Positions 47,325 through 63,429 of a stretch of DNA of 64,000 bases are shown here, piece by piece (the first letter of the stretch is position 1; every line of letters starts with the position of its first letter). The notes under the pieces are model-generated. The model was not told where the DNA came from. It worked only from the letters and a program-made list of their open reading frames with translations, and made no database searches. The DNA comes from Bacillota bacterium (GTDB lineage: Bacteria > Bacillota_I > Bacilli_A > RF39 > UBA660): NCBI GenBank assembly GCA_015059375.1, contig SVAN01000002.1, positions 27,328-91,327 on the forward strand, in the 5' to 3' direction. Made by a program: the position numbers and the translations under genes.

Positions 47325-47368
47325 TGGAGGAACCAACCAGATTTGAACTGGTGCTCAGGGTGTTGCAG
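47325..47368 (-). pseudogene. 3' half of a disrupted tRNA-Cys (anticodon loop to CCA), one att junction
   Basis: The minus strand reads CTGCAAC-ACCCT-GAGC-ACCAG-TTCAAAT-CTGGT-TGGTTCC-T-CCA. TGGTTCC pairs with GGAACCA at 63354-63360. Confidence 0.8.
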
Positions 47369-47498
47369 TCCCATACATACCTATTTAGTTATTATATAAA
47401 ATTCATTAAAACCTAGGTAAATAAAGGGTTTAGTAGAAGTTTGTATAAATCGATATTACTATCATTTTATTAAAATTTACTACTAAATTATCATCAAG

Positions 47499-47523
47499 TG
47501 ATACGTTTTTGATACGTTTTTTT
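47499..47523 (+). repeat. tandem GATACGTTTT(T) repeat (putative integrase arm-type site), left arm
   Basis: gtGATACGTTTTTGATACGTTTTTtt. The same tandem recurs at 63053-63076 and 63221-63243. Confidence 0.6.
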
Positions 47524-49097: not shown

Positions 49098-49796
49098 ATG
49101 ATTCATAGAGTTGTTAAAAATAGTAATTACACAATAGTAAATAATGTATATTTAAGAGATAAAGCTTTAAGTTTTGGGGCTATAGGATTAATGACTAATA
49201 TACTATCTTGTAAAGATGATACTAATTTTAATGTTAAATTCTTAAGTATGTTGACTAGTAAGAGTGAAAAAGTTGTAACTAAATATCTAAATGAATTAAA
49301 ACGAAATGGTTATGTTGATGTAGAAAAATTAAATAGTAAAGATGGATTTTACTATAATTATTATGTTTATGAATCTAAAGAATTAAATCCTAAATATTCT
49401 TATAAAAGCCCAGATACCCAAAACCCAACCTGGGAAAGCCCACCTTTGGGTTTGGTAGATACTAATAAATACTTATATAAACAAGATAAAATAGATAAAT
49501 TACATTTAGACTTAAATAATATAACTATTTATTTAGTAGATAAAGGATTAATTAAGGTTGATGACATTACTCTCTTTGCTTATGATGACTTTATAAAAGA
49601 GTTATTTAATAATGAAGATTATAAAAAAGTAGTCAAAAGTATTTCTTATACTACTAATCATATATTAAAGAATAAGTTTAGAGATGAATCACATCAACCT
49701 ATATTAAATTTATTCTCTTATTTTAAAAGTTCAGTAATTAGTAATATTAATAGACAATACACTAATGAAGAATTAGAAGATTTATATGATATTTAA
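49098..49796 (+). CDS. winged-HTH replication-initiator/DnaD-like DNA-binding protein
   Basis: The N-terminal pattern YTIVNNVYLRDKALSFGAIGLMTNILS...FLSMLTSKSEKVVTKYLNELKRNGYV is typical of plasmid and phage Rep wHTH proteins. Confidence 0.5.
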   Translation: MIHRVVKNSNYTIVNNVYLRDKALSFGAIGLMTNILSCKDDTNFNVKFLSMLTSKSEKVVTKYLNELKRNGYVDVEKLNSKDGFYYNYYVYESKELNPKYSYKSPDTQNPTWESPPLGLVDTNKYLYKQDKIDKLHLDLNNITIYLVDKGLIKVDDITLFAYDDFIKELFNNEDYKKVVKSISYTTNHILKNKFRDESHQPILNLFSYFKSSVISNINRQYTNEELEDLYDI

Positions 49797-50189: not shown

Positions 50190-50435
50190 ATGTATAATAA
50201 TTTAGTATATGTTATAGGCAAAATAAAAGAAATAGACAAAGATATAGTAAAAATTAAAGTTAAAAAAGATGATAAAGAATTTAATATAATAACTTGTCAA
50301 TTACTTAATATGTCAACAGAATCACTAGAAGTTGATAAATTAATCGGTATTAGAGGTTTTTTAGAATCTGATGAAAATGATAATATAAAAGTTATTGTAT
50401 TAAAATTAACTCATTTGCCAAGTTTTGAGGAGTAA
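50190..50435 (+). CDS. mini OB-fold (SSB-like) protein
   Basis: NLVYVIGKIKEI...FNIITCQLL...DKLIGIRGFLES follows the SSB OB-fold strand pattern. No acidic tail. Confidence 0.4.
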   Translation: MYNNLVYVIGKIKEIDKDIVKIKVKKDDKEFNIITCQLLNMSTESLEVDKLIGIRGFLESDENDNIKVIVLKLTHLPSFEE

Positions 50436-50442
50436 GATACAA

Positions 50443-51153
50443 ATGAATTATGTAAGAATATATTATAAATTAAGTTTTAAATATAGATTATTATTATGTT
50501 TATTAAATAATTATTATTTAAATCATTATGCAAAGAATAAAATTAATAGTAAAATTGTAGTATCATCTCCTGATGAGTCAAAACTCATGAGAGATTATGA
50601 GATTATATTTAATGTTATTAAGAATTTAAAAATAGATGATTTAATAACATTAAGAAAATTTATACCTAAACATCAAATAGAAATAATTAAAATCTTTGAT
50701 GAATTAAAGAAACAAGATATAGACTATAGTAAGATTATTGATGATATAAAGAAAGAATATGTTGAAGATAATAGTATTTATTATAATGATTATTGTGATG
50801 ATTATGAGTATGACTATGACTTAAAGAAAAATAGTATTACTGAAGATACAAAAATACTATTTTTAGAGAATTCCTATTTAAAAGAAGTATATAATAAGCA
50901 TTTAATTAGAAATGTATTTAGCACAGATAATTATTCTATATGCAGAATGAGGTCTGGTAGCAATAATGAATTTTTAGGAACTCTAACAAGTTATGCTTTA
51001 AAATATAAGAAAATAAATAATATAGTAAGAGACATCACTAGTATTAATTTAGAAGATGATTCTTACTATTGCCTTAATTTATATTTAGAAGCAAATGATG
51101 ATGTTATAAGTTATATACAAGAAGATTTATATAATGCGAGAATTGATGATTAG
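50443..51153 (+). CDS. hypothetical protein (element)
   Basis: Start set at the ATG after RBS gaggag. No motif recognised. Confidence 0.45.
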   Translation: MNYVRIYYKLSFKYRLLLCLLNNYYLNHYAKNKINSKIVVSSPDESKLMRDYEIIFNVIKNLKIDDLITLRKFIPKHQIEIIKIFDELKKQDIDYSKIIDDIKKEYVEDNSIYYNDYCDDYEYDYDLKKNSITEDTKILFLENSYLKEVYNKHLIRNVFSTDNYSICRMRSGSNNEFLGTLTSYALKYKKINNIVRDITSINLEDDSYYCLNLYLEANDDVISYIQEDLYNARIDD

Positions 51154-55293: not shown

Positions 55294-56256
55294 GTGAATA
55301 ATGATATTACTATAATAGATAGTAATACTTTGATTACTATTAACTCAAATCAAGAAATAATTAATAAATGGTTTAAAATGTCTGAATTGACTAATAAAAA
55401 TACCAAACAAACTTATTTGGAAGGACTTTGTAAGTTTGTAAGTTTCATAAAAGAAAAAGGAATTGTTAATCCTACAAGTGAAACTATAATTGATTTTAAA
55501 GAATTTTTAATGAATAGATATTCTAATTCATCATCATACAATTATTTAAGTGGAGTAAAAAGTTTTTATAAATTTTTAGAACTACAAAATATAAGTCAAG
55601 ATATTACAAGAGGAATTAAGTTACCAAAAATTCAAAGAGGAAATAAAAAAGACTCTTTAACTTTAGACCAATTAAAGAGTTTGTTCTCTATTTTGAATCA
55701 AGACACTTTATTAAATGCACGAGATTGCTGTATAATTCAATTAATGATTAGAACTGGTTTAAGAAGTTGTGAAGTTATTGGAGCAAATATTGAAGATATT
55801 CAAAATAAAGAGGGAGAAAAAGTCTTGTATATCAAAGGTAAAGGACATACAGAAAAAGATAATTTTGTAGTGATAGAGCCAGACTTAATGAATATCATAG
55901 ATAATTACTTAAATAAGAGAAAGAAATATATAGATAAAGACCCTTTATTTATAAGTTTAAGTAATAATACTTATGGAGAAAGATTAAAAAGTATTAGTTT
56001 TAGAAAGATAGTCAAAGAAAAATTAAGAGAAGCAAATATTGATAGTAATAGAATTAGCACTCACTCTTTAAGACATACTGCAATTACTCTTGCACTAATA
56101 TCAGGTTCAACTTTAGTAGAAACTAGAGATATGGCGAGACATACAGATATAAATACTACTGCTGATTATTTTACAAATCTACAAAGAGTACAAAATAGTC
56201 CAGAAGCAAAAATAGGTAAATTTATTAAAGAAAATATCACTTCTGATATAAATTAA
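55294..56256 (+). CDS. XerC/XerD-like tyrosine recombinase (internal)
   Basis: RTGLRSCEV (Arg I), HSLRHTAIT (H-x-x-R) and ARHTDINTTADY (catalytic Tyr region). GTG start with RBS agaaagagg. Confidence 0.85.
   Translation: MNNDITIIDSNTLITINSNQEIINKWFKMSELTNKNTKQTYLEGLCKFVSFIKEKGIVNPTSETIIDFKEFLMNRYSNSSSYNYLSGVKSFYKFLELQNISQDITRGIKLPKIQRGNKKDSLTLDQLKSLFSILNQDTLLNARDCCIIQLMIRTGLRSCEVIGANIEDIQNKEGEKVLYIKGKGHTEKDNFVVIEPDLMNIIDNYLNKRKKYIDKDPLFISLSNNTYGERLKSISFRKIVKEKLREANIDSNRISTHSLRHTAITLALISGSTLVETRDMARHTDINTTADYFTNLQRVQNSPEAKIGKFIKENITSDIN
55429..55442 (+). repeat. TGTAAGTTTGTAAG motif, copy 2 (inside recombinase CDS)
   Basis: Exact 14-mer. Confidence 0.7.
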
Positions 56257-56350: not shown

Positions 56351-57442
56351 TTATAAAATTTTAGAATTTTTACATAATTCTATTAGTAACATTTCATCAT
56401 TTTTAGAAGAATCTTTAAAACATGATTTTATAGCATTAGTATTATTAATCTGTTTGTTAATTTCTTCATTGTTTAATTCTTTAAGTTTACCTACTAAAAT
56501 TTTACAAGAATTATTTAAATTATTTCTAGTGTTGTTTTTGTGAAAGTTTGGGTCCTCATTAAAACAACTACTGCAAAGATTTTTAGTTAGTCTGATTGTT
56601 GGTATTGAACATCTATGACATATATTAAAGATTGTACTATTAAGATAAACACAATTTAAAAAATAATAGACTATTGCTTGAACCAAATTGTTAGTTTCAA
56701 TGTAATTTTCATTAAGGTTATTTATAATTTGACTATTATATTGTTTGTAAGATGAAATATATAAATAATATTCTTGTTTAAAACATTTGATATAATAATT
56801 TAATTCTTCAACATATATTTTAACTTCTTGTAATTCATTAAAACCCATAATATTATTTAAATGAAGTTTATCATTTTTATTTAGTTTAGTATCAATAATT
56901 TTTTTAATTTCTGCTAATACATATATAGTAATTGAAGTAAAAATTAAATCTTTAGCTCTAACAGCTAGAGATATACCGTTATTGTGACTTTCTTCAATAA
57001 GCTCTTTATCTATATTTTCATAGTAAGGTAACCCATTTTTATGACAAAAGTCTATAATTAAATCAAATATAAGTTTATCTTCAATTAATTTATCATAATT
57101 TTTAATTTTAATAACGTGATTAGTATTTGGTTCTATATCATCATATAAATTAAAATCTATGTTATTTTTTTCTTCAAATGTATTAGTACCTTTTAAAGAT
57201 AATAATACTATTTTCATATCTTTTCTCTTTTTAATAAATATTTTACTAAAATAATCTATACCTTCAATTTGAAGGTATAATTTTTTTCCTAAATTACATA
57301 ACTCTTTAAATTTAGTTTCTAAATCTTCAATTTTTGTATTATATGATTCATTTCCAAAGCCCTCAATAATATAATAATTAAATATTTTTTTTAAATTATA
57401 GTTTTCAAAAGTATAAACATTTCTTTTAAGATTTAACCTCAT
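56351..57442 (-). CDS. hypothetical protein, sole long antisense-oriented gene of the element (cargo candidate)
   Basis: 363 aa with a C-terminal CHRC...CSSC pair and its own RBS aaaggagg. Confidence 0.5.
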   Translation of the reverse strand: MRLNLKRNVYTFENYNLKKIFNYYIIEGFGNESYNTKIEDLETKFKELCNLGKKLYLQIEGIDYFSKIFIKKRKDMKIVLLSLKGTNTFEEKNNIDFNLYDDIEPNTNHVIKIKNYDKLIEDKLIFDLIIDFCHKNGLPYYENIDKELIEESHNNGISLAVRAKDLIFTSITIYVLAEIKKIIDTKLNKNDKLHLNNIMGFNELQEVKIYVEELNYYIKCFKQEYYLYISSYKQYNSQIINNLNENYIETNNLVQAIVYYFLNCVYLNSTIFNICHRCSIPTIRLTKNLCSSCFNEDPNFHKNNTRNNLNNSCKILVGKLKELNNEEINKQINNTNAIKSCFKDSSKNDEMLLIELCKNSKIL

Positions 57443-57692: not shown

Positions 57693-58181
57693 TTGTGGTT
57701 AATGGAACATGTTATGCAAATAACAGATTATGATAGAATTAAAGGGAATGAAGAAAGTGAATTTAATGAAAGAGCGAGAAGACGTCTTGAAATAAAGAAA
57801 AAATTCCGCCAAAATGAGCGTTGTAAAGGTACTTATGACCCAAAAGAAGGAGTTTATAATGTAGTTATTGGCCAAATTTCTATTAAAGAAAATAGAAACG
57901 GCAATTCTTATATGCAATTTGTTTGTCACAACCTAGATAAGAAAGAAAAATTATATGCTTCTTATTATTTAACAGATGGCACAGATGAATCTTCAATAAC
58001 TGATTTAAGATGTTTACTTGATGAATTTAACCAAGATGATTTTACTGATTATGAAATAGTTGATGATTATGCTATATTAGAAAGATTACAAATACTAATT
58101 GGTGAAGAAGCTAAATTAGTAGTTGAAGACCAAGATGGTTATATGTCAGCGAAGTTATACAGAGAGATTCCAAATGAATAA
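57693..58181 (+). CDS. DUF669-like putative ssDNA-binding protein, translationally coupled to polB
   Basis: GVYNVVIGQISIKENRNGNSYMQFVCHNLD pattern. Its stop overlaps the polB start. The start codon is uncertain. Confidence 0.4.
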   Translation: MWLMEHVMQITDYDRIKGNEESEFNERARRRLEIKKKFRQNERCKGTYDPKEGVYNVVIGQISIKENRNGNSYMQFVCHNLDKKEKLYASYYLTDGTDESSITDLRCLLDEFNQDDFTDYEIVDDYAILERLQILIGEEAKLVVEDQDGYMSAKLYREIPNE

Positions 58182-59976
58182 TCTTATATATTATGACATA
58201 GAAGTTTTTTGTCAAGATTGGCTATTTATAGCCAATCTTGATGAACACTTTATTGTAATTCATAATGATAAAGATAAATTAGATAATTTTATAAAGAAAC
58301 ATAAAAATTACTGGTATGTTGGTTATAATAATTATCATTATGATGACTTAATATTAACAGATATTCTTAACGGAAATAATCCGTATTATTTAAGCAAAAT
58401 GATTATTAATAAAACTGAAAATATTAATATTGATGTAATTCCAAATTTTAAAAGTTTAGATTTAATGCAAGATATTCAAAAAGAAAATAGTAATACCTTT
58501 ATGAGTCTAAAGAAGATTATGGGAAATTTAGGATTATCTATTGTCGAAAGTTCAGTCTCTTTTGATATTGATAGACCACTTACAACATTTGAACTTGAAG
58601 AAACAATAAAATATTGTTCTAATGATGTATTAGGAGTAAAAGTATTATATAAATATAGATATAAATATTTTGAAACAAAATTTACACTTATAAATGAGTT
58701 TGATTTACCTATTGAAACAATTAGATTAGATGAAAATAAATTAGTGTCATTAATCTTAAAATGTAAATGGTTTAAGGAGCCAAGAGATTATTTATCTTTT
58801 GATTATTGTAAACAAATCGATTTTAATTTAATTCCAAACGAAGTATTAGATTTTTACGCTGATATAGAATATAAGTATTTTAAGGGTATGGATTATAAAA
58901 AAGCTATTATTAGTGTTGGTAAAAAAGGAAAATTAAATACAAAACTTTTAGGAGTTCAAACCAACTATGGTTTAGGAGGTTTACACGCTTGTTCTAAAGC
59001 ACGAATGTTTGTAAATAATATTATGCAAATAGATGTGAGTTCTTATTACCCAACACTTATGGTTAATAATGAATTTTATAGTCGTTCTTTTACAAAACCA
59101 GAATTATACAAAAGTATTTATAACAAAAGAATGAAATTAAAAGAAGTTGATAAGTTACGTTCCGATGCGTATAAATTAATTTTAAATAAACCTATTGGCT
59201 GTATGCGTAGTGAAATGATTATGAAAGATTTTCATAATGCGAATAATATTATAGTTAATGGGCAGTTGATACTTACTCAATTAGTTATGGAACTTAAAGA
59301 TTATATTATCTTATTACAAATAAATACTGATAGTATTACTTTCAAATATAATAAAAGAAACTACGATAAAATATTAAATATTATCTGTGACTTTGAAAAG
59401 AGGTTTAATCTTAAATTTGATAAAGATAAAGTTAAGTTTTTATACCAGAAAAATGTCAATAATTATTTTTTAATTATGGAAGATAATAAAATGAAATTTA
59501 AAGGACAAGACTTTAAAAATTATGATAAACATGACTTTATTTATTTAAATAATAGTCGAAGTATTATAAGTAAATGTCTAGTTGAATATTATAAGAATAA
59601 AACTCCTATAGAAGAAACAGTTAGAAAATGTTATGACAATGATGAAATAGATAGATTCCAATTAATAGTATCCTATGGAAATAAATATGACAAGTGCTTT
59701 TTAGAATATCAAGGTAAACTTATCGAACAACCACAAAAAGTTAATCGTGTATTTGCAGTGAAAAATAATGAATACGGATTAATTTATAAGTGTAAAAAAG
59801 TCGATAAAGAACAAGATAAAAATACCTTTGAACAAAATGGTTGCTTTTATAAGAAAGAGAAAATGCCTAATTCTTTTGAACACAATTATATATTTAATGA
59901 TGATATATCAAAGTTCGATAAAGCGTTATTAGATTTAGATTATTATATCAAAATTTGCAAGAAGGAGTTAAAGTAA
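58174..59976 (+). CDS. compact family-B DNA polymerase with 3'-5' exonuclease domain
   Basis: ExoI YYDIEVF, ExoII NNYHYDD, ExoIII YCSNDV, motif A DVSSYYPT, motif [10 protein letters not shown], motif C NTDS. Start set at MNNLIYY. Confidence 0.8.
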
Positions 59977-59977
59977 A

Positions 59978-61498
59978 ATGAAAGATTATTATAAAATTTT
60001 AGGAGTAAGTAAAAATGCTAGTGTTGATGAAATAAAAAAAGCATATCGAAAACTAGCAAAAAAGTATCATTCTGATAATAAAGAAACTGGCAATGAAAAA
60101 AAGTTTAAAGAAATCCAAGAAGCATATGATACATTAAATAATGAAGAAAAGCGACAAGCATATGATACATTTTGCAAATCCAATACTAATTATGAGAAAA
60201 CTACAAATGATGATTATAAAAAAGATTTAAATGCTATGTTTAAATCATATGCTGAAGATGATAATTTGTATTTTATAACATACCTTGCTGAATATTTAAG
60301 TAAAACATATTGTTTTAAATTATATAATGGTTTATTATATGTTAAGTTTGATAAAAAGTATATTAATAATGAAAAAGAAATAATACAAAGATTAAATCAA
60401 GATATAAAACTTACTAAAAGACATTTTAAGGAATTGATGTATCAATTAGAATTATACGCAGAAAAAATTACAGACCAAGTTAATAAAATTCGATTAAATA
60501 ATGGAATATTAACTTTAAGTGATAAAGGTATATACGAAGTAATTGAAGATGATGGTAGTTTTTGTCCTTATAATCTAGATGTAGACTATAATGCAGATTT
60601 AACAGATGAAAAGGTAAATAATTTTTTAAATGATGTTAGTTGTAATAATACAGATATACTTAATATGTTAACAGAAATGATAGGCAGTATCTTAATTACT
60701 GAACCTAAATCACAATTTATGTTTTTTATTCACGGCGTTAAAGGTAGAAATGGTAAAAGTACATTTACTTCTGCGTTAAGGGAATTTGTTGGAAAAGATT
60801 TATCTTCAAATGTTAGTATCACAGGTTTTAAGGATGAAACTAAATTAAGTTCTTTGCGAGGTAAGATTCTTAATATTTGTGATGACGCTGACTACGAAAA
60901 AATATATCTAGAACGTTCACAAACACTTAAGTCATTAGCGAGTGGTGAGTTAATAAATTGTCGCCCGATTTATAGACATCCAGTTAGTTTTTTTAATACT
61001 GCAACAATTATTTGTACTACAAATACTATGCCTGAATTTGCAGATAAAAGTGGTGGAACTCGTCGTAGATTAATTATAATTGAATTTAATATGGTTGTAG
61101 ATAAAAATAATAATAATCCAAATTTACTTGATGAATTAACAACTAATACTGCTAAAACAACATTTTTAAATATTGCTATTAAAGGTATGAATAGATTATT
61201 GAATAATAACTATTATATTACCGAAAATGAAACTCTTACTAAAACTTTAGAAGAATATTATCGAAGTAGTGATACAGTTAAGGATTTTATTGATAGTGGT
61301 GCAGAAATCGAAAATCAAATAGTTGCCAATGTATATAACGCTTATGAAACATTTTGTGATAAAGTAATTTGTCGTGAAAAAGAAAGCAAAAATGTTTTCG
61401 GTATGCGCATGAAACAATATGGATATATTTCTAAAGTTGACACAAAAACAAGAGATGATAGAAAAAAAGTTTCTCAAAGAATTTATATAAAAAAGTAA
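59978..61498 (+). CDS. J-domain :: D5_N-like :: SF3 (P4/D5-type) helicase fusion protein
   Basis: N-terminal [31 protein letters not shown]...[19 protein letters not shown]. Walker [11 protein letters not shown], Walker B NICDDAD, motif C ICTTN and RRRLIIIEF. Confidence 0.85.
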
Positions 61499-61583: not shown

Positions 61584-61874
61584 ATGGAAGATATACGAAA
61601 TATGAAAGTTGGAGACTTTTTAGATTTACTGACAACATTGATTAACAATAAACAAGAAAATGATACAGAAAAAAAGTATTTATCTAAAAACGAAGTTTTA
61701 GAGCAATACCCATTATTTACCGAAAGTAGTTTATCTAAAGCTGTTAAATTTCAAGGTTTAGAATATATTAAATCTGGAAGATGTAGATACTATGCAAAAG
61801 ATTCAATAGAAAAATGGCTTGAAAATCAAAAACAAAAAGAAATTTATAATCGATTTGAAGGAATTAAATTTTAG
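61584..61874 (+). CDS. xis: excisionase-family HTH protein
   Basis: Small HTH protein (KYLSKNEVLEQYPLFTESSLSKAVKFQGLEYIKSGR.RYYAKDSIEKWL) immediately upstream of int. Confidence 0.6.
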   Translation: MEDIRNMKVGDFLDLLTTLINNKQENDTEKKYLSKNEVLEQYPLFTESSLSKAVKFQGLEYIKSGRCRYYAKDSIEKWLENQKQKEIYNRFEGIKF

Positions 61875-61894: not shown

Positions 61895-63055
61895 ATGAAT
61901 ACTAAAGATGAAGATATGAAATATATTACAATTTTACCTAATGGTTCAAAAAGAATTAGTGTTAGAATTGGACGAGGTATTGATGGCAAATACCTTTATG
62001 ATACTAAACAATTAGGTAAAGAAGTAGATATAAAAGAAGTAAAAAAACTTCGTGATAAAATGGTAGAAAATAAACAAAATATAAAGAATATAGATGGAAG
62101 TATGTTAGTAGAGACTTTTGCTAAAAAATGGCTAGTTGAAGTTGTTTTAGCACAGTCTCCTAATACTTATGATGATAATTACTCAAAATTAAAACATCAT
62201 ATAATTCCTTATTTTGGTACAAGTAAATTAAAAAATATCACTCAAGATAAAGTTCAAGAATTAGTAAAATATTTAACCACTAAAAAAGCAATGAATAAAA
62301 AAGATTCATTATTAAGCGTCACTACTATAAAACATATAGTAAATGTCTTAAGTTCAATGATGAATTATGCTATAGAATTAAAAATGATTAAAACTAATCC
62401 TTGTCACGATATAAAATACCCAAAAGGAGAAACTTTTGAAAAAGAAGTATATAACGTTGAAGAAATTGGTATTTTAATAAATCATTTAAAACTATTACCA
62501 TCTCAAAATAAAGCTTTGTATATTGTATTATTAACAACTGGATTAAGGCGTGGTGAGTTAATAGGATTACATTGGAAAGACATAGATTTTAAAAATAAAA
62601 CAGTATCTATTAAAAAAGCATATTATAAAACAAAGGTAAGTGGTAAAGTAACAACTAAACCAAAATCTAAATATAGTATTAGAACAGTCGGTTTAAGTGA
62701 TTTAGCTATTGAATGTTTATTAGAATATAAGAAAGAACAAGATATATGGAAGAAAAAATATTCAAGCGAATGGAAATCTCCTAATGTATTTACAGATGTA
62801 TTTGGAAATATTTTAAGTCCTGATGCAGTGTCTAGTAGATGGACAAGACTAGTTAAGAAAATACCTGTTAAAAATATTAGACTACACGATTTAAGAGCAA
62901 GTTATGCAACATATTTAGTTTATAGTGAAACCCCAATAGCAGATATATCTAAAACTATGGGACATTCAAGAATAAGTACAACTGTTGATATGTATGTAAA
63001 AAGTTACGATAAATATTATGAGTCAGCACGAAATAATATTAATAAAATTCGTTGA
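61895..63055 (+). CDS. int: phage-type tyrosine integrase
   Basis: TTGLRRGEL (Arg I), HDLRASYAT (H-x-x-R) and GHSRISTTVDMY (catalytic Tyr), with an N-terminal arm-binding-type extension. Adjacent to the att end. Confidence 0.9.
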   Translation: MNTKDEDMKYITILPNGSKRISVRIGRGIDGKYLYDTKQLGKEVDIKEVKKLRDKMVENKQNIKNIDGSMLVETFAKKWLVEVVLAQSPNTYDDNYSKLKHHIIPYFGTSKLKNITQDKVQELVKYLTTKKAMNKKDSLLSVTTIKHIVNVLSSMMNYAIELKMIKTNPCHDIKYPKGETFEKEVYNVEEIGILINHLKLLPSQNKALYIVLLTTGLRRGELIGLHWKDIDFKNKTVSIKKAYYKTKVSGKVTTKPKSKYSIRTVGLSDLAIECLLEYKKEQDIWKKKYSSEWKSPNVFTDVFGNILSPDAVSSRWTRLVKKIPVKNIRLHDLRASYATYLVYSETPIADISKTMGHSRISTTVDMYVKSYDKYYESARNNINKIR

Positions 63056-63076
63056 TACGTTTTATTGATACGTTTT
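63053..63076 (+). repeat. tandem GATACGTTTT repeat, copy overlapping the int stop codon
   Basis: tGATACGTTTTATTGATACGTTTT. Confidence 0.6.
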
Positions 63077-63133: not shown

Positions 63134-63207
63134 TGGAGGAGCCAGTCGGATTTGAACCGACGATGGAGGTGTTGCAGACCTGTGCCTTACCACTTGGCTA
63201 TGGCTCC
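63134..63207 (-). tRNA. intact tRNA-Cys (anticodon GCA) carried inside the element
   Basis: GGAGCCA-TA-GCCAAGTGGTAAGGC-A-CAGGT-CTGCAAC-ACCTC-CATC-GTCGG-TTCAAAT-CCGAC-TGGCTCC-T-CCA. Confidence 0.95.
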
Positions 63208-63220
63208 ATTTTTTGATAAC

Positions 63221-63243
63221 TGATACGTTTTTGATACGTTTTT
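63221..63243 (+). repeat. tandem GATACGTTTTT repeat, right arm
   Basis: tGATACGTTTTTGATACGTTTTT, preceded by the half-copy GATAAC. About 80 bp inside the att core. Confidence 0.6.
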
Positions 63244-63323
63244 AATAATTTTATTAAATTTTTATTTAATCATTCCTTTAATTACGAGGGTTTGCAACGC
63301 ATTTATACTTAAGAGTACGAGGC

Positions 63324-63360
63324 GTTGCAGACCCACGCCTTACCACTTGGCTATGGTTCC
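63324..63360 (-). pseudogene. 5' half of the disrupted tRNA-Cys (positions 1-37), other att junction
   Basis: The minus strand reads GGAACCA-TA-GCCAAGTGGTAAGGC-G-TGGGT-CTGCAAC, followed by non-tRNA sequence. Confidence 0.8.
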
Positions 63361-63429
63361 ATAATACATTATATGCTTTTTCAAGCAATATAATTGTATT
63401 ATATTTTCTTTAGACTGTCAACTTTTATA

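Follow-up and report, generated by a model that had tools for sequence, protein, structure and literature searches.

The 'NTDG' variant of polymerase motif C was published in 2011 as the hallmark of a phage subgroup of family-B DNA polymerases (PolBs), the 'PolIIphages' (Kazlauskas & Venclovas, PMC3201878), and the PolBs of crAss-like phages form a group with profound differences in motif C and in the KxY motif (Kazlauskas et al. 2020, PMC7544198). A changed motif C is also known from the primer-independent PolBs (piPolBs) of pipolins, where it reads SxTTDG (Redrejo-Rodriguez et al. 2017, PMC5695915); such enzymes still polymerise efficiently without the first Asp of this motif (PMC7544198). 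A further point of reference is CcPol-MP/PolA-SSB, a polymerase with an SSB-like partner from SCCmec and other Bacillota elements (Bebel et al., PMC10061031). Here, we compare with these systems a PolB of 600 amino acids (aa) encoded in a 64,000-nucleotide stretch of contig SVAN01000002.1 of a Bacillota bacterium, an uncultured member of the gut Bacilli—hereafter the window—within an integrative element of ~16 kb that splits a host tRNA-Cys gene. The polymerase is a new member of the known, published NTDG subgroup. What is genuinely new is the lineage-wide loss of the primase domain from an otherwise conserved module of single-stranded DNA-binding protein (SSB), PolB, and helicase.

In phages of the NTDG subgroup, polB adjoins genes for a DUF669 SSB and a D5/P4-type superfamily 3 (SF3) helicase. 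For Paenibacillus phage LincolnB, Mycoplasmopsis phage PMF329, and the prophages L011 and L017, the DUF669 protein precedes PolB and a 'DNA primase' of 610–670 aa follows it, directly or within a few kb, which is composed of Prim-Pol—an archaeo-eukaryotic primase (AEP) domain—PriCT_1, D5_N, and the DUF5906 SF3 helicase. The window element is alike in this gene neighbourhood. A 162-aa DUF669-like protein of SSB type (57693–58181, plus strand; PHROG 378 SSB, E=1e-4) is encoded upstream of polB, and a 506-aa protein with a J-domain and a D5_N/DUF5906 SF3 helicase (59978–61498, plus strand) downstream. The first gene ends at 58181 and thereby overlaps the polB start at 58174 by 8 nucleotides (nt), and the helicase gene starts at 59978, 1 nt past the polB stop at 59976; judged from these coordinates, the three genes form a tightly coupled operon. 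DUF669 has been inferred to be a phage SSB (PMC4889955). Counterparts of the 162-aa protein in L006, L008, and L011 match Pfam DUF669, and homologues occupy the same position in all nine related elements compared.

The helicase is the part that differs. In the window protein, a DnaJ domain (residues 1–63) is followed by a linker and then by the DUF5906/P4 primase_Cterm SF3 helicase, with no primase domain. Residues 103–487 align to residues 229–610 of the LincolnB 'DNA primase' (30% identity, E=7e-45), whose N-terminus consists of Prim-Pol and PriCT_1; this primase part of ~228 residues is missing from the window helicase, and the DnaJ domain and linker are found in its place. A preliminary description of the window, made from the sequence alone, had noted that the helicase adjacent to PolB lacks a primase domain, and both the Pfam and NCBIfam scans and the LincolnB alignment bear this out. 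The J-domain itself is distributed in a patchy manner among the closer relatives. It is present in the window (59978–60166) and in L019 (7815–9398; DnaJ E=1.6e-24), whose PolB is 70% identical, and it is absent from the 428-aa helicase of L004 (11814–13100), whose PolB is 79% identical, as well as from the 436–450-aa helicases of L006, L008, L010, and L016.

The extent of the primase loss was assessed by a survey of 98 loci, drawn from phage records, metagenome contigs with PolB homologues, and contigs of genomes retrieved by a single scan across 185,579 species. In each locus, matches were scored to PolB, to the helicase core, and to a profile of Prim-Pol derived from four phage relatives. 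In the 10 distinct loci whose PolB is at least 45% identical to that of the window (the window itself, L004, L019, L010, L006, L020, L016, L021, L022, and L008), the helicase lies immediately downstream in a frame of 433–528 aa, and a match to the Prim-Pol profile within 6–10 kb was found in none of them. By comparison, more than 30 loci with a PolB of at most 43% identity carry a helicase frame of 595–677 aa that includes Prim-Pol, with E-values from 1e-24 to 1e-99. In a tree of the 48-sequence alignment, 15 tips—among them every primase-less context examined—form one clade on a long stem with a local support of 1.0. Since the primase-less contexts form a single clade, the simplest reading is that the primase domain was lost once and that this loss then persisted for long. 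The hosts of the clade, where named, are uncultured Bacilli represented by metagenome-assembled genomes from animal and human guts, and L020 is a circular genome of 1.5 Mb.

The clade is set apart from the NTDG phages in several further respects. Its members come from integrative elements of ~10–16 kb without virion genes, and the window PolB is only 28–32% identical to those of the named phages of the subgroup. Apart from the Prim-Pol lost from the partner helicase, the clade is marked by two residues of motif B (59188–59202, residues 339–343), which reads LN-K-P-x-G-C-M throughout the clade and, with few exceptions, LN-[ATS]-x-[FY]-G-A-M in the 33 remaining sequences. All clade members (15/15) have K339, compared with 2/33 sequences outside, where A, T, or S dominate; C343 is likewise fixed in 15/15 and present in 1/33. 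Thus, the helix with which the polymerase binds the incoming nucleotide carries an additional Lys and a Cys in the clade.

The assignment of the polymerase to family B draws on profiles and on a structure model. PHROG 1252 'DNA polymerase' covers the protein end to end (E=4.7e-104). Pfam-A gives no match even at E=10, nor does NCBIfam at E=1, and a single-sequence phmmer search against the PDB sequences is equally empty; the solved PolBs are reached only by the family profile, which finds Sulfolobus Dpo1 (1s5j, E=1.4e-8) and KOD (1.3e-5) and, scoring below these two, Escherichia coli Pol II (3k57, 3.6e-4), the cellular PolB to which members of the PolIIphages subgroup are expected to be most similar. 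More than 230 homologues were found, full-length ones at 96%, 79%, 77% identity and lower, and 752 phage records gave a match in tblastn, 187 of which were full length; hence, the features of this PolB are not a matter of chance. This widespread subgroup goes undetected by the Pfam-A and NCBIfam models: most matches of the homologue search are without a Pfam domain or a name, and polB is listed as hypothetical in several of the phage records.

An AlphaFold2 (AF2) model built from the 48-homologue alignment reaches a pLDDT of 94.3 and a pTM of 0.90. It places D287 at the end of the strand 278–288 and the NTD of motif C at the turn joining the strands 378–384 and 387–392, and its fingers hairpin consists of two short helices only (309–322 and 327–344). 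The best PDB matches of this model in Foldseek are archaeal family-B polymerases, among them 1tgo, KOD, and 9°N (with E ~3e-13 and a probability of 1.0), and the best viral matches in BFVD, which are the closer ones, are phage DNA polymerases with TM-scores of 0.80–0.87 and crAss-like PolBs; no protein-primed PolB is among the top fold matches in either database. When the family profile is aligned to the solved PolBs, motif A falls on 'LDFASLYPSII', motif B on AMKVFINATYGVF, and the profile segment 'LiqsNtDgii' of motif C on 'VLYGDTDSLF' of 1s5j, likewise for KOD, with no canonical DTD elsewhere in the protein. The alignment to reference PolBs that the preliminary description had proposed as a check therefore identifies its NTDS segment as motif C. 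By model and profile alike, the protein is a real family-B polymerase with a right-hand fold and an N-terminal DEDDy 3′–5′ exonuclease domain.

Two other classifications were considered and dropped. Family A came into view for the short spacing of motifs A and B and for the 'LLQI-N-T-D' segment, which resembles the A-family 'LLQVHDE'; the fold search and the profile alignment refute it. The K-x-K-G segment at residues 441–444 (K441-F-K-G) resembles the KTRG of piPolBs. It is not such a motif, because an ordinary strand of archaeal PolBs ('TTRG'/'DIKG') aligns there and the true KxY position reads NNY; the NNY...K-x-K-G of the strand after motif C thus corresponds to the KKY...TTRG of ordinary archaeal enzymes.

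The longest frame over polB opens at a TTG at 58123, and the ATG at 58174 is the start of homologues of exactly 600 aa (P0002, 96% identical; P0003, 79%). These begin at the same Met, and the boundaries 58174–59976 on the plus strand, as given earlier, are right for this NTDG-subgroup polymerase (PHROG 1252). The three exonuclease motifs and polymerase motifs A–C, which the preliminary description had read in only ~600 aa, are all recovered in the translation and motif scan and are conserved. Their conservation was followed in the 48 metagenomic homologues and in a 13-sequence alignment, which includes the PolBs of LincolnB, PMF329, Enterococcus phage IME-EFm1, crAssphage cr114_1, Salmonella phage SE1 (Nonagvirus), Rheinheimera phage Barba1S, and Pseudomonas phage HHBS29_1. 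On the plus strand, ExoI is D8-I-E10 (58195–58203), ExoII is N52-N-Y-H-Y56-D57 (58327–58344; N52 and D57 invariant in the alignments), and ExoIII is Y147-C-S-N-D151 (58612–58626; D151 invariant, Y147 invariant or nearly so). Motif A is D287-VSSYYPT with the catalytic Asp D287 (59032–59055), which aligns to solved PolBs. Motif B is K334-LILNKPIG with K334, N338, and G342 (59173–59199), aligned to 'KVFINATYG' of 1s5j. The family-B consensus for these five motifs is DxE, Nx2–3[FY]D, Yx3D, DxxSLYPS, and KxxxNSxYG. Motif C is N384-T385-D386-S387 (59323–59334), in which D386 is the catalytic Asp by profile alignment to the DTDS of 1s5j and KOD. The equivalent of the KxY motif is N429-N430-Y431 (59458–59466), which falls on 'KNY' in 1s5j and on 'KKY' in KOD; its Tyr is kept and its Lys is replaced by Asn.

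D57, D151, D287, K334, N384, and D386 are invariant in the 48 homologues, with T385 in >90% of them, and D8, E10, Y147, D151, D287, K334, N384, T385, D386, N429, and Y431 are invariant in the 13 sequences. From D287 to K334 there are 47 residues and from K334 to N384 another 50. The earlier statement that motifs A and B leave no room for a TPR1 insertion holds with this measured distance and with the two-helix fingers. Motif C reads QINTDS, so that D386 is the sole Asp at a place where the canonical YxDTDS has two, and N384 aligns to the first Asp of 1s5j and KOD, as had been read from the sequence.

It is the interpretation of this Asn that changes. The preliminary description had called NTDS unusual, but N384 and D386 are invariant in all 48 and all 13 sequences, and NTDG has been in print since 2011. 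The subgroup of the window PolB is the PolIIphages group of that publication, corresponding to PHROG 1252, and relatives are encoded by many Bacillota siphophages as well as by crAss-like phages, Nonagvirus, and Barbavirus; motif C is NTDS in the window PolB, NTDG in most relatives, and NTDS is ordinary there. The length of ~560–620 aa and the short two-helix fingers are likewise common to the whole family in the 48-homologue alignment. With the PolIIphages and the crAss-like PolBs, the window enzyme thus shares the fold, the motif set, NTD(G/S), NNY, the size, and the fingers. Asn at the first position of DTD neither predicts inactivity nor informs on priming, because subgroup relatives with NTD keep Prim-Pol on the neighbouring helicase. 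The tie between NTDS, compactness, and priming that had been implied therefore falls, as both traits are subgroup-wide and the loci of 30+ relatives have Prim-Pol. Of the view that priming is an open question, one part stands: the puzzle is real, with no primase found in the element, and it belongs to the lineage-specific loss of a domain by this element and not to the sequence of its PolB.

Two variations of gene content were seen among the relatives of the polymerase. About 12 relatives of 817–908 aa (P0082, P0084–P0086, P0092, P0101, P0108, P0111, P0116, P0117, and P0119) fuse an ERF single-strand-annealing domain (PF04404) to PolB, which points to a direct link of the polymerase to recombination-dependent replication in some phages. 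A gene annotated as 'DNA polymerase processivity factor' precedes the NTDG PolB in the relatives from phages of Gram-negative bacteria, Nonagvirus SE1 (L013, 429–1421) and Pseudomonas phage HHBS29_1 (L015, 863–2005), and no counterpart was seen in the window element.

For a primase encoded elsewhere in the element, every open reading frame (ORF) of at least 80 aa was compared with Pfam, most with PHROGs, and selected ones with NCBIfam and PADLOC; no primase family was matched. Neither tblastn nor hmmsearch over the six-frame ORFs of the whole window revealed a remnant of Prim-Pol, and a pseudogenised copy in the window was rejected on these grounds. The preliminary description, which had recognised no primase in the element, is hence confirmed by family scans and by dedicated Prim-Pol searches.

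How, then, might this replisome obtain its primers? The window PolB combines the fold of an active proofreading PolB with all of its catalytic residues (the metal-binding aspartates D287 and D386, and the DEDDy residues); where DTD has its first, dispensable Asp, N384 is found, as in all subgroup members. It is under purifying selection, to judge by homologues that stay full length at 96%, 79%, and 77% identity. Primer extension is the activity to be expected of it, as for its phage relatives, because these carry a dedicated AEP primase; there, the N-terminal Prim-Pol domain of the helicase would supply the primers. In the element, an initiator-like protein and the helicase may open the origin after excision, a primase not encoded by the element would then make the primers, and PolB would extend them. 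We regard it as likely that the protein is, in this manner, a functional, proofreading, primer-extending NTDG PolB that acts as the replicase of its element with primers from outside the element. The host primase, most likely DnaG, has about an even chance of being their source, and the other routes—an RNA-polymerase transcript, a 3′ end from a nick or from recombination, or the primase of a helper phage—jointly have a rather small one. A DnaD-like initiator could bridge the element to the host primosome. The large T antigen of SV40 combines a J-domain with an SF3 helicase and recruits the host Pol alpha-primase for primers. The window helicase resembles this polyomavirus protein in the fusion of a J-domain to an SF3 helicase without a primase of its own; the polyomavirus borrows the host polymerase, whereas the window element brings its own PolB and SSB.

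Several points weigh against primers from outside the element. No biochemistry of any member of the NTDG subgroup was found in the literature; activity and primer dependence are read from conservation and from the context of the relatives. To our knowledge, host DnaG normally docks on DnaB-type helicases rather than on those of SF3, and its recruitment to a bacterial SF3 replisome would be without precedent. The primase-less state persists down to ~45% PolB identity, and motif B, which binds the dNTP, carries the clade's own K339 and C343; both observations are compatible with core proteins having taken over priming. Such a replisome, in which the PolB of the clade, alone or with the coupled DUF669-type SSB, starts chains de novo, might be a B-family counterpart of CcPol-MP, or piPolB-like activity might have originated in it a second time; either would make Prim-Pol dispensable. 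In its favour, Prim-Pol was lost once and never regained in a deep clade in which SSB, PolB, and helicase stay conserved and adjacent. The architecture also parallels that of the PolA-SSB primases, which are found in Bacillota elements beside a primase-less COG3378/D5_N helicase and recombinases (PMC10061031). The two systems are alike in having a polymerase, an SSB-like partner—of OB fold in CcPol-MP, and putatively so for the 162-aa DUF669-like protein—a primase-less helicase, and recombinases. They differ in that the CcPol-MP polymerase is of family A, usually truncated, and without proofreading, whereas that of the window is a complete family-B enzyme with an intact exonuclease, and in the gene order, which is Pol–SSB–helicase there and SSB–Pol–helicase here. 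That a PolB can prime at all, also without the first Asp of motif C, is shown by piPolB (PMC5695915, PMC7544198), which resides in integrative, recombinase-bearing, tRNA-targeting elements that, like the window element, encode no separate primase; the first Asp is replaced in both polymerases, by Thr in piPolB and by Asn in the window. However, piPolB has TPR1, TPR2, SxTTDG, and KH-X8-KTRG, none of which occurs in the window PolB (motif C QxNTD[GS]), and it groups with protein-primed PolBs, whereas the window PolB groups with RNA-primed phage PolBs. De novo initiation is suggested by analogy, with K339 and C343 as the sole, weak hint in the sequence, and NTD and the altered KxY are no markers of priming since they also occur in phage relatives that keep a dedicated primase, just as the DUF669–PolB pairing is found in Prim-Pol-bearing phages. 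Overall, chain initiation by the PolB of the clade seems unlikely, and we likewise doubt, a little more strongly, that an NTDG PolB and its coupled DUF669 SSB took over primer synthesis after the Prim-Pol loss as a second origin of primer-independent PolBs; if self-priming were true, K339 and C343 would be its candidate determinants.

A primase of a new type might instead be hidden in the element, in a 363-aa protein (56351–57442, minus strand; no family match), in the 242-aa ORF at 50425–51153, or in another ORFan. The 363-aa protein occupies a slot that is flanked by the genes for the small recombinase and the SSB and lies just upstream of the operon. This slot always holds a gene for 320–442 aa, on either strand, in 10/10 elements (window, L004, L006, L008, L010, L016, and L019–L022) and is absent in the phage relatives; the Cys pairs of the 363-aa protein suggest a zinc ribbon, as in many primases. 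Yet the slot proteins of these elements fall into five groups without detectable mutual similarity, at PolB identities of 45–79%; those of the window and L004 are in dissimilar groups although their PolBs are 79% identical. The slot hence fits a fast-evolving cargo or specificity gene and not a replisome enzyme, because dissimilar groups stand beside conserved replication genes. Moreover, the 363-aa protein has only 4 homologues in 5.8 billion clusters, its AF2 model—mainly helical with the zinc ribbon—reaches a pLDDT of only 57.7, and hhalign against the Prim-Pol of the relatives gives a probability of at most 0.2% for the slot family (0.2%), the 242-aa protein, and the 232-aa initiator-like protein. 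The antisense protein was accordingly rejected as a split-off primase, and with neither a family match nor a six-frame remnant, a hidden primase of any kind is improbable. An inactive or decaying polymerase, with the enzyme inactivated by the Asn of motif C and the element a non-replicating remnant, would agree with the classical mutagenesis, as cited in the piPolB study, which holds that both aspartates of YxDTDS are required (PMC5695915). It is very improbable given that N384 is invariant in all homologues, including those of lytic phages that depend on the enzyme, that the other catalytic residues are intact and the homologues full length, and that piPolB works without the first Asp. Protein priming of the phi29/Bam35 type could be suspected from the small size and from ExoI at the very N-terminus, which is also its place in phi29 DNA polymerase. 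With no room for TPR1 or, in the 50 residues between motifs B and C, for TPR2, no such enzyme among the fold matches, relatives that carry Prim-Pol, and an element that a recombinase has integrated in place of a linear genome with a terminal protein at its ends, it is extremely improbable. Primers from outside the element are thus the reading we prefer.

The element itself separates the halves of the host tRNA-Cys, which are split at the anticodon loop. The 3′ half lies at the left border (47325–47368, minus strand) and the 5′ half at the right border (63319–63362, minus strand); they pair by the acceptor strand TGGTTCC of the former and GGAACCA of the latter. A complete tRNA-Cys of the element's own, different in sequence from the host copy, is located just inside the right border (63134–63207), and the G+C content is ~22% in the element and ~30% in its flanks. 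Tandem GATACGTTTT repeats are found near both ends (47496–47521 and 63218–63243), with a variant at ~63052–63076. According to domain and PHROG scans, a tyrosine integrase (61895–63055, plus strand) is encoded next to the tRNA-Cys and an Xis-like helix-turn-helix (HTH) gene lies at 61584–61874. The 232-aa replication-initiator-like protein (49098–49796, plus strand) has a DnaD-like winged HTH; it matches PHROG 4707 'replication initiation protein' (E=6e-16) and PHROG 186 'DnaD-like helicase loader' and is conserved in L004, L006, L010, and L016. The element also encodes an XRE repressor, a mini-protein of DnaA domain III, membrane proteins, and an HTH_17 protein with a Xer-like recombinase, and no virion or conjugation genes are found in it. 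A defence system was considered and rejected, as PADLOC gave no match for 10 element proteins.

The genes for the repressor, initiator, HTH_17 protein, DUF669-like protein, PolB, and helicase recur in related elements, and those for the recombinases are swapped. Internally, the window element encodes a small recombinase of the Xer-like tyrosine type (55294–56256), in whose place each of the five related elements examined has a serine resolvase (L004, 7289–7993; L006, 164–865; L008, 7689–8315; L010, 7286–7996; L016, 6703–7308), and the terminal integrase is of the tyrosine type in the window, L004, L006, and L010 and of the large serine type in L008, L016, and L019. A 184-aa protein of L016 (5659–6213) and L021 (2643–3197) matches only the C-terminal domain of DnaB-type helicases (PF03796) and is a possible handle on the host DnaB–DnaG machinery.

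Taken by itself, the polymerase contributes little, being one further representative of the NTDG subgroup. Its clade, however, amounts to a natural experiment, in which one replication module exists in two states: with a fused AEP primase in more than 30 phage and prophage loci, and with none in a deep clade of elements from gut Bacilli. This contrast offers a handle, testable at the bench, on how primers are supplied in replisomes built on an SF3 helicase—whether the primase of the host is borrowed or a proofreading PolB–SSB pair primes itself. Self-priming, if true, would attract practical interest as a means of amplifying DNA without primers, as piPolB has done.

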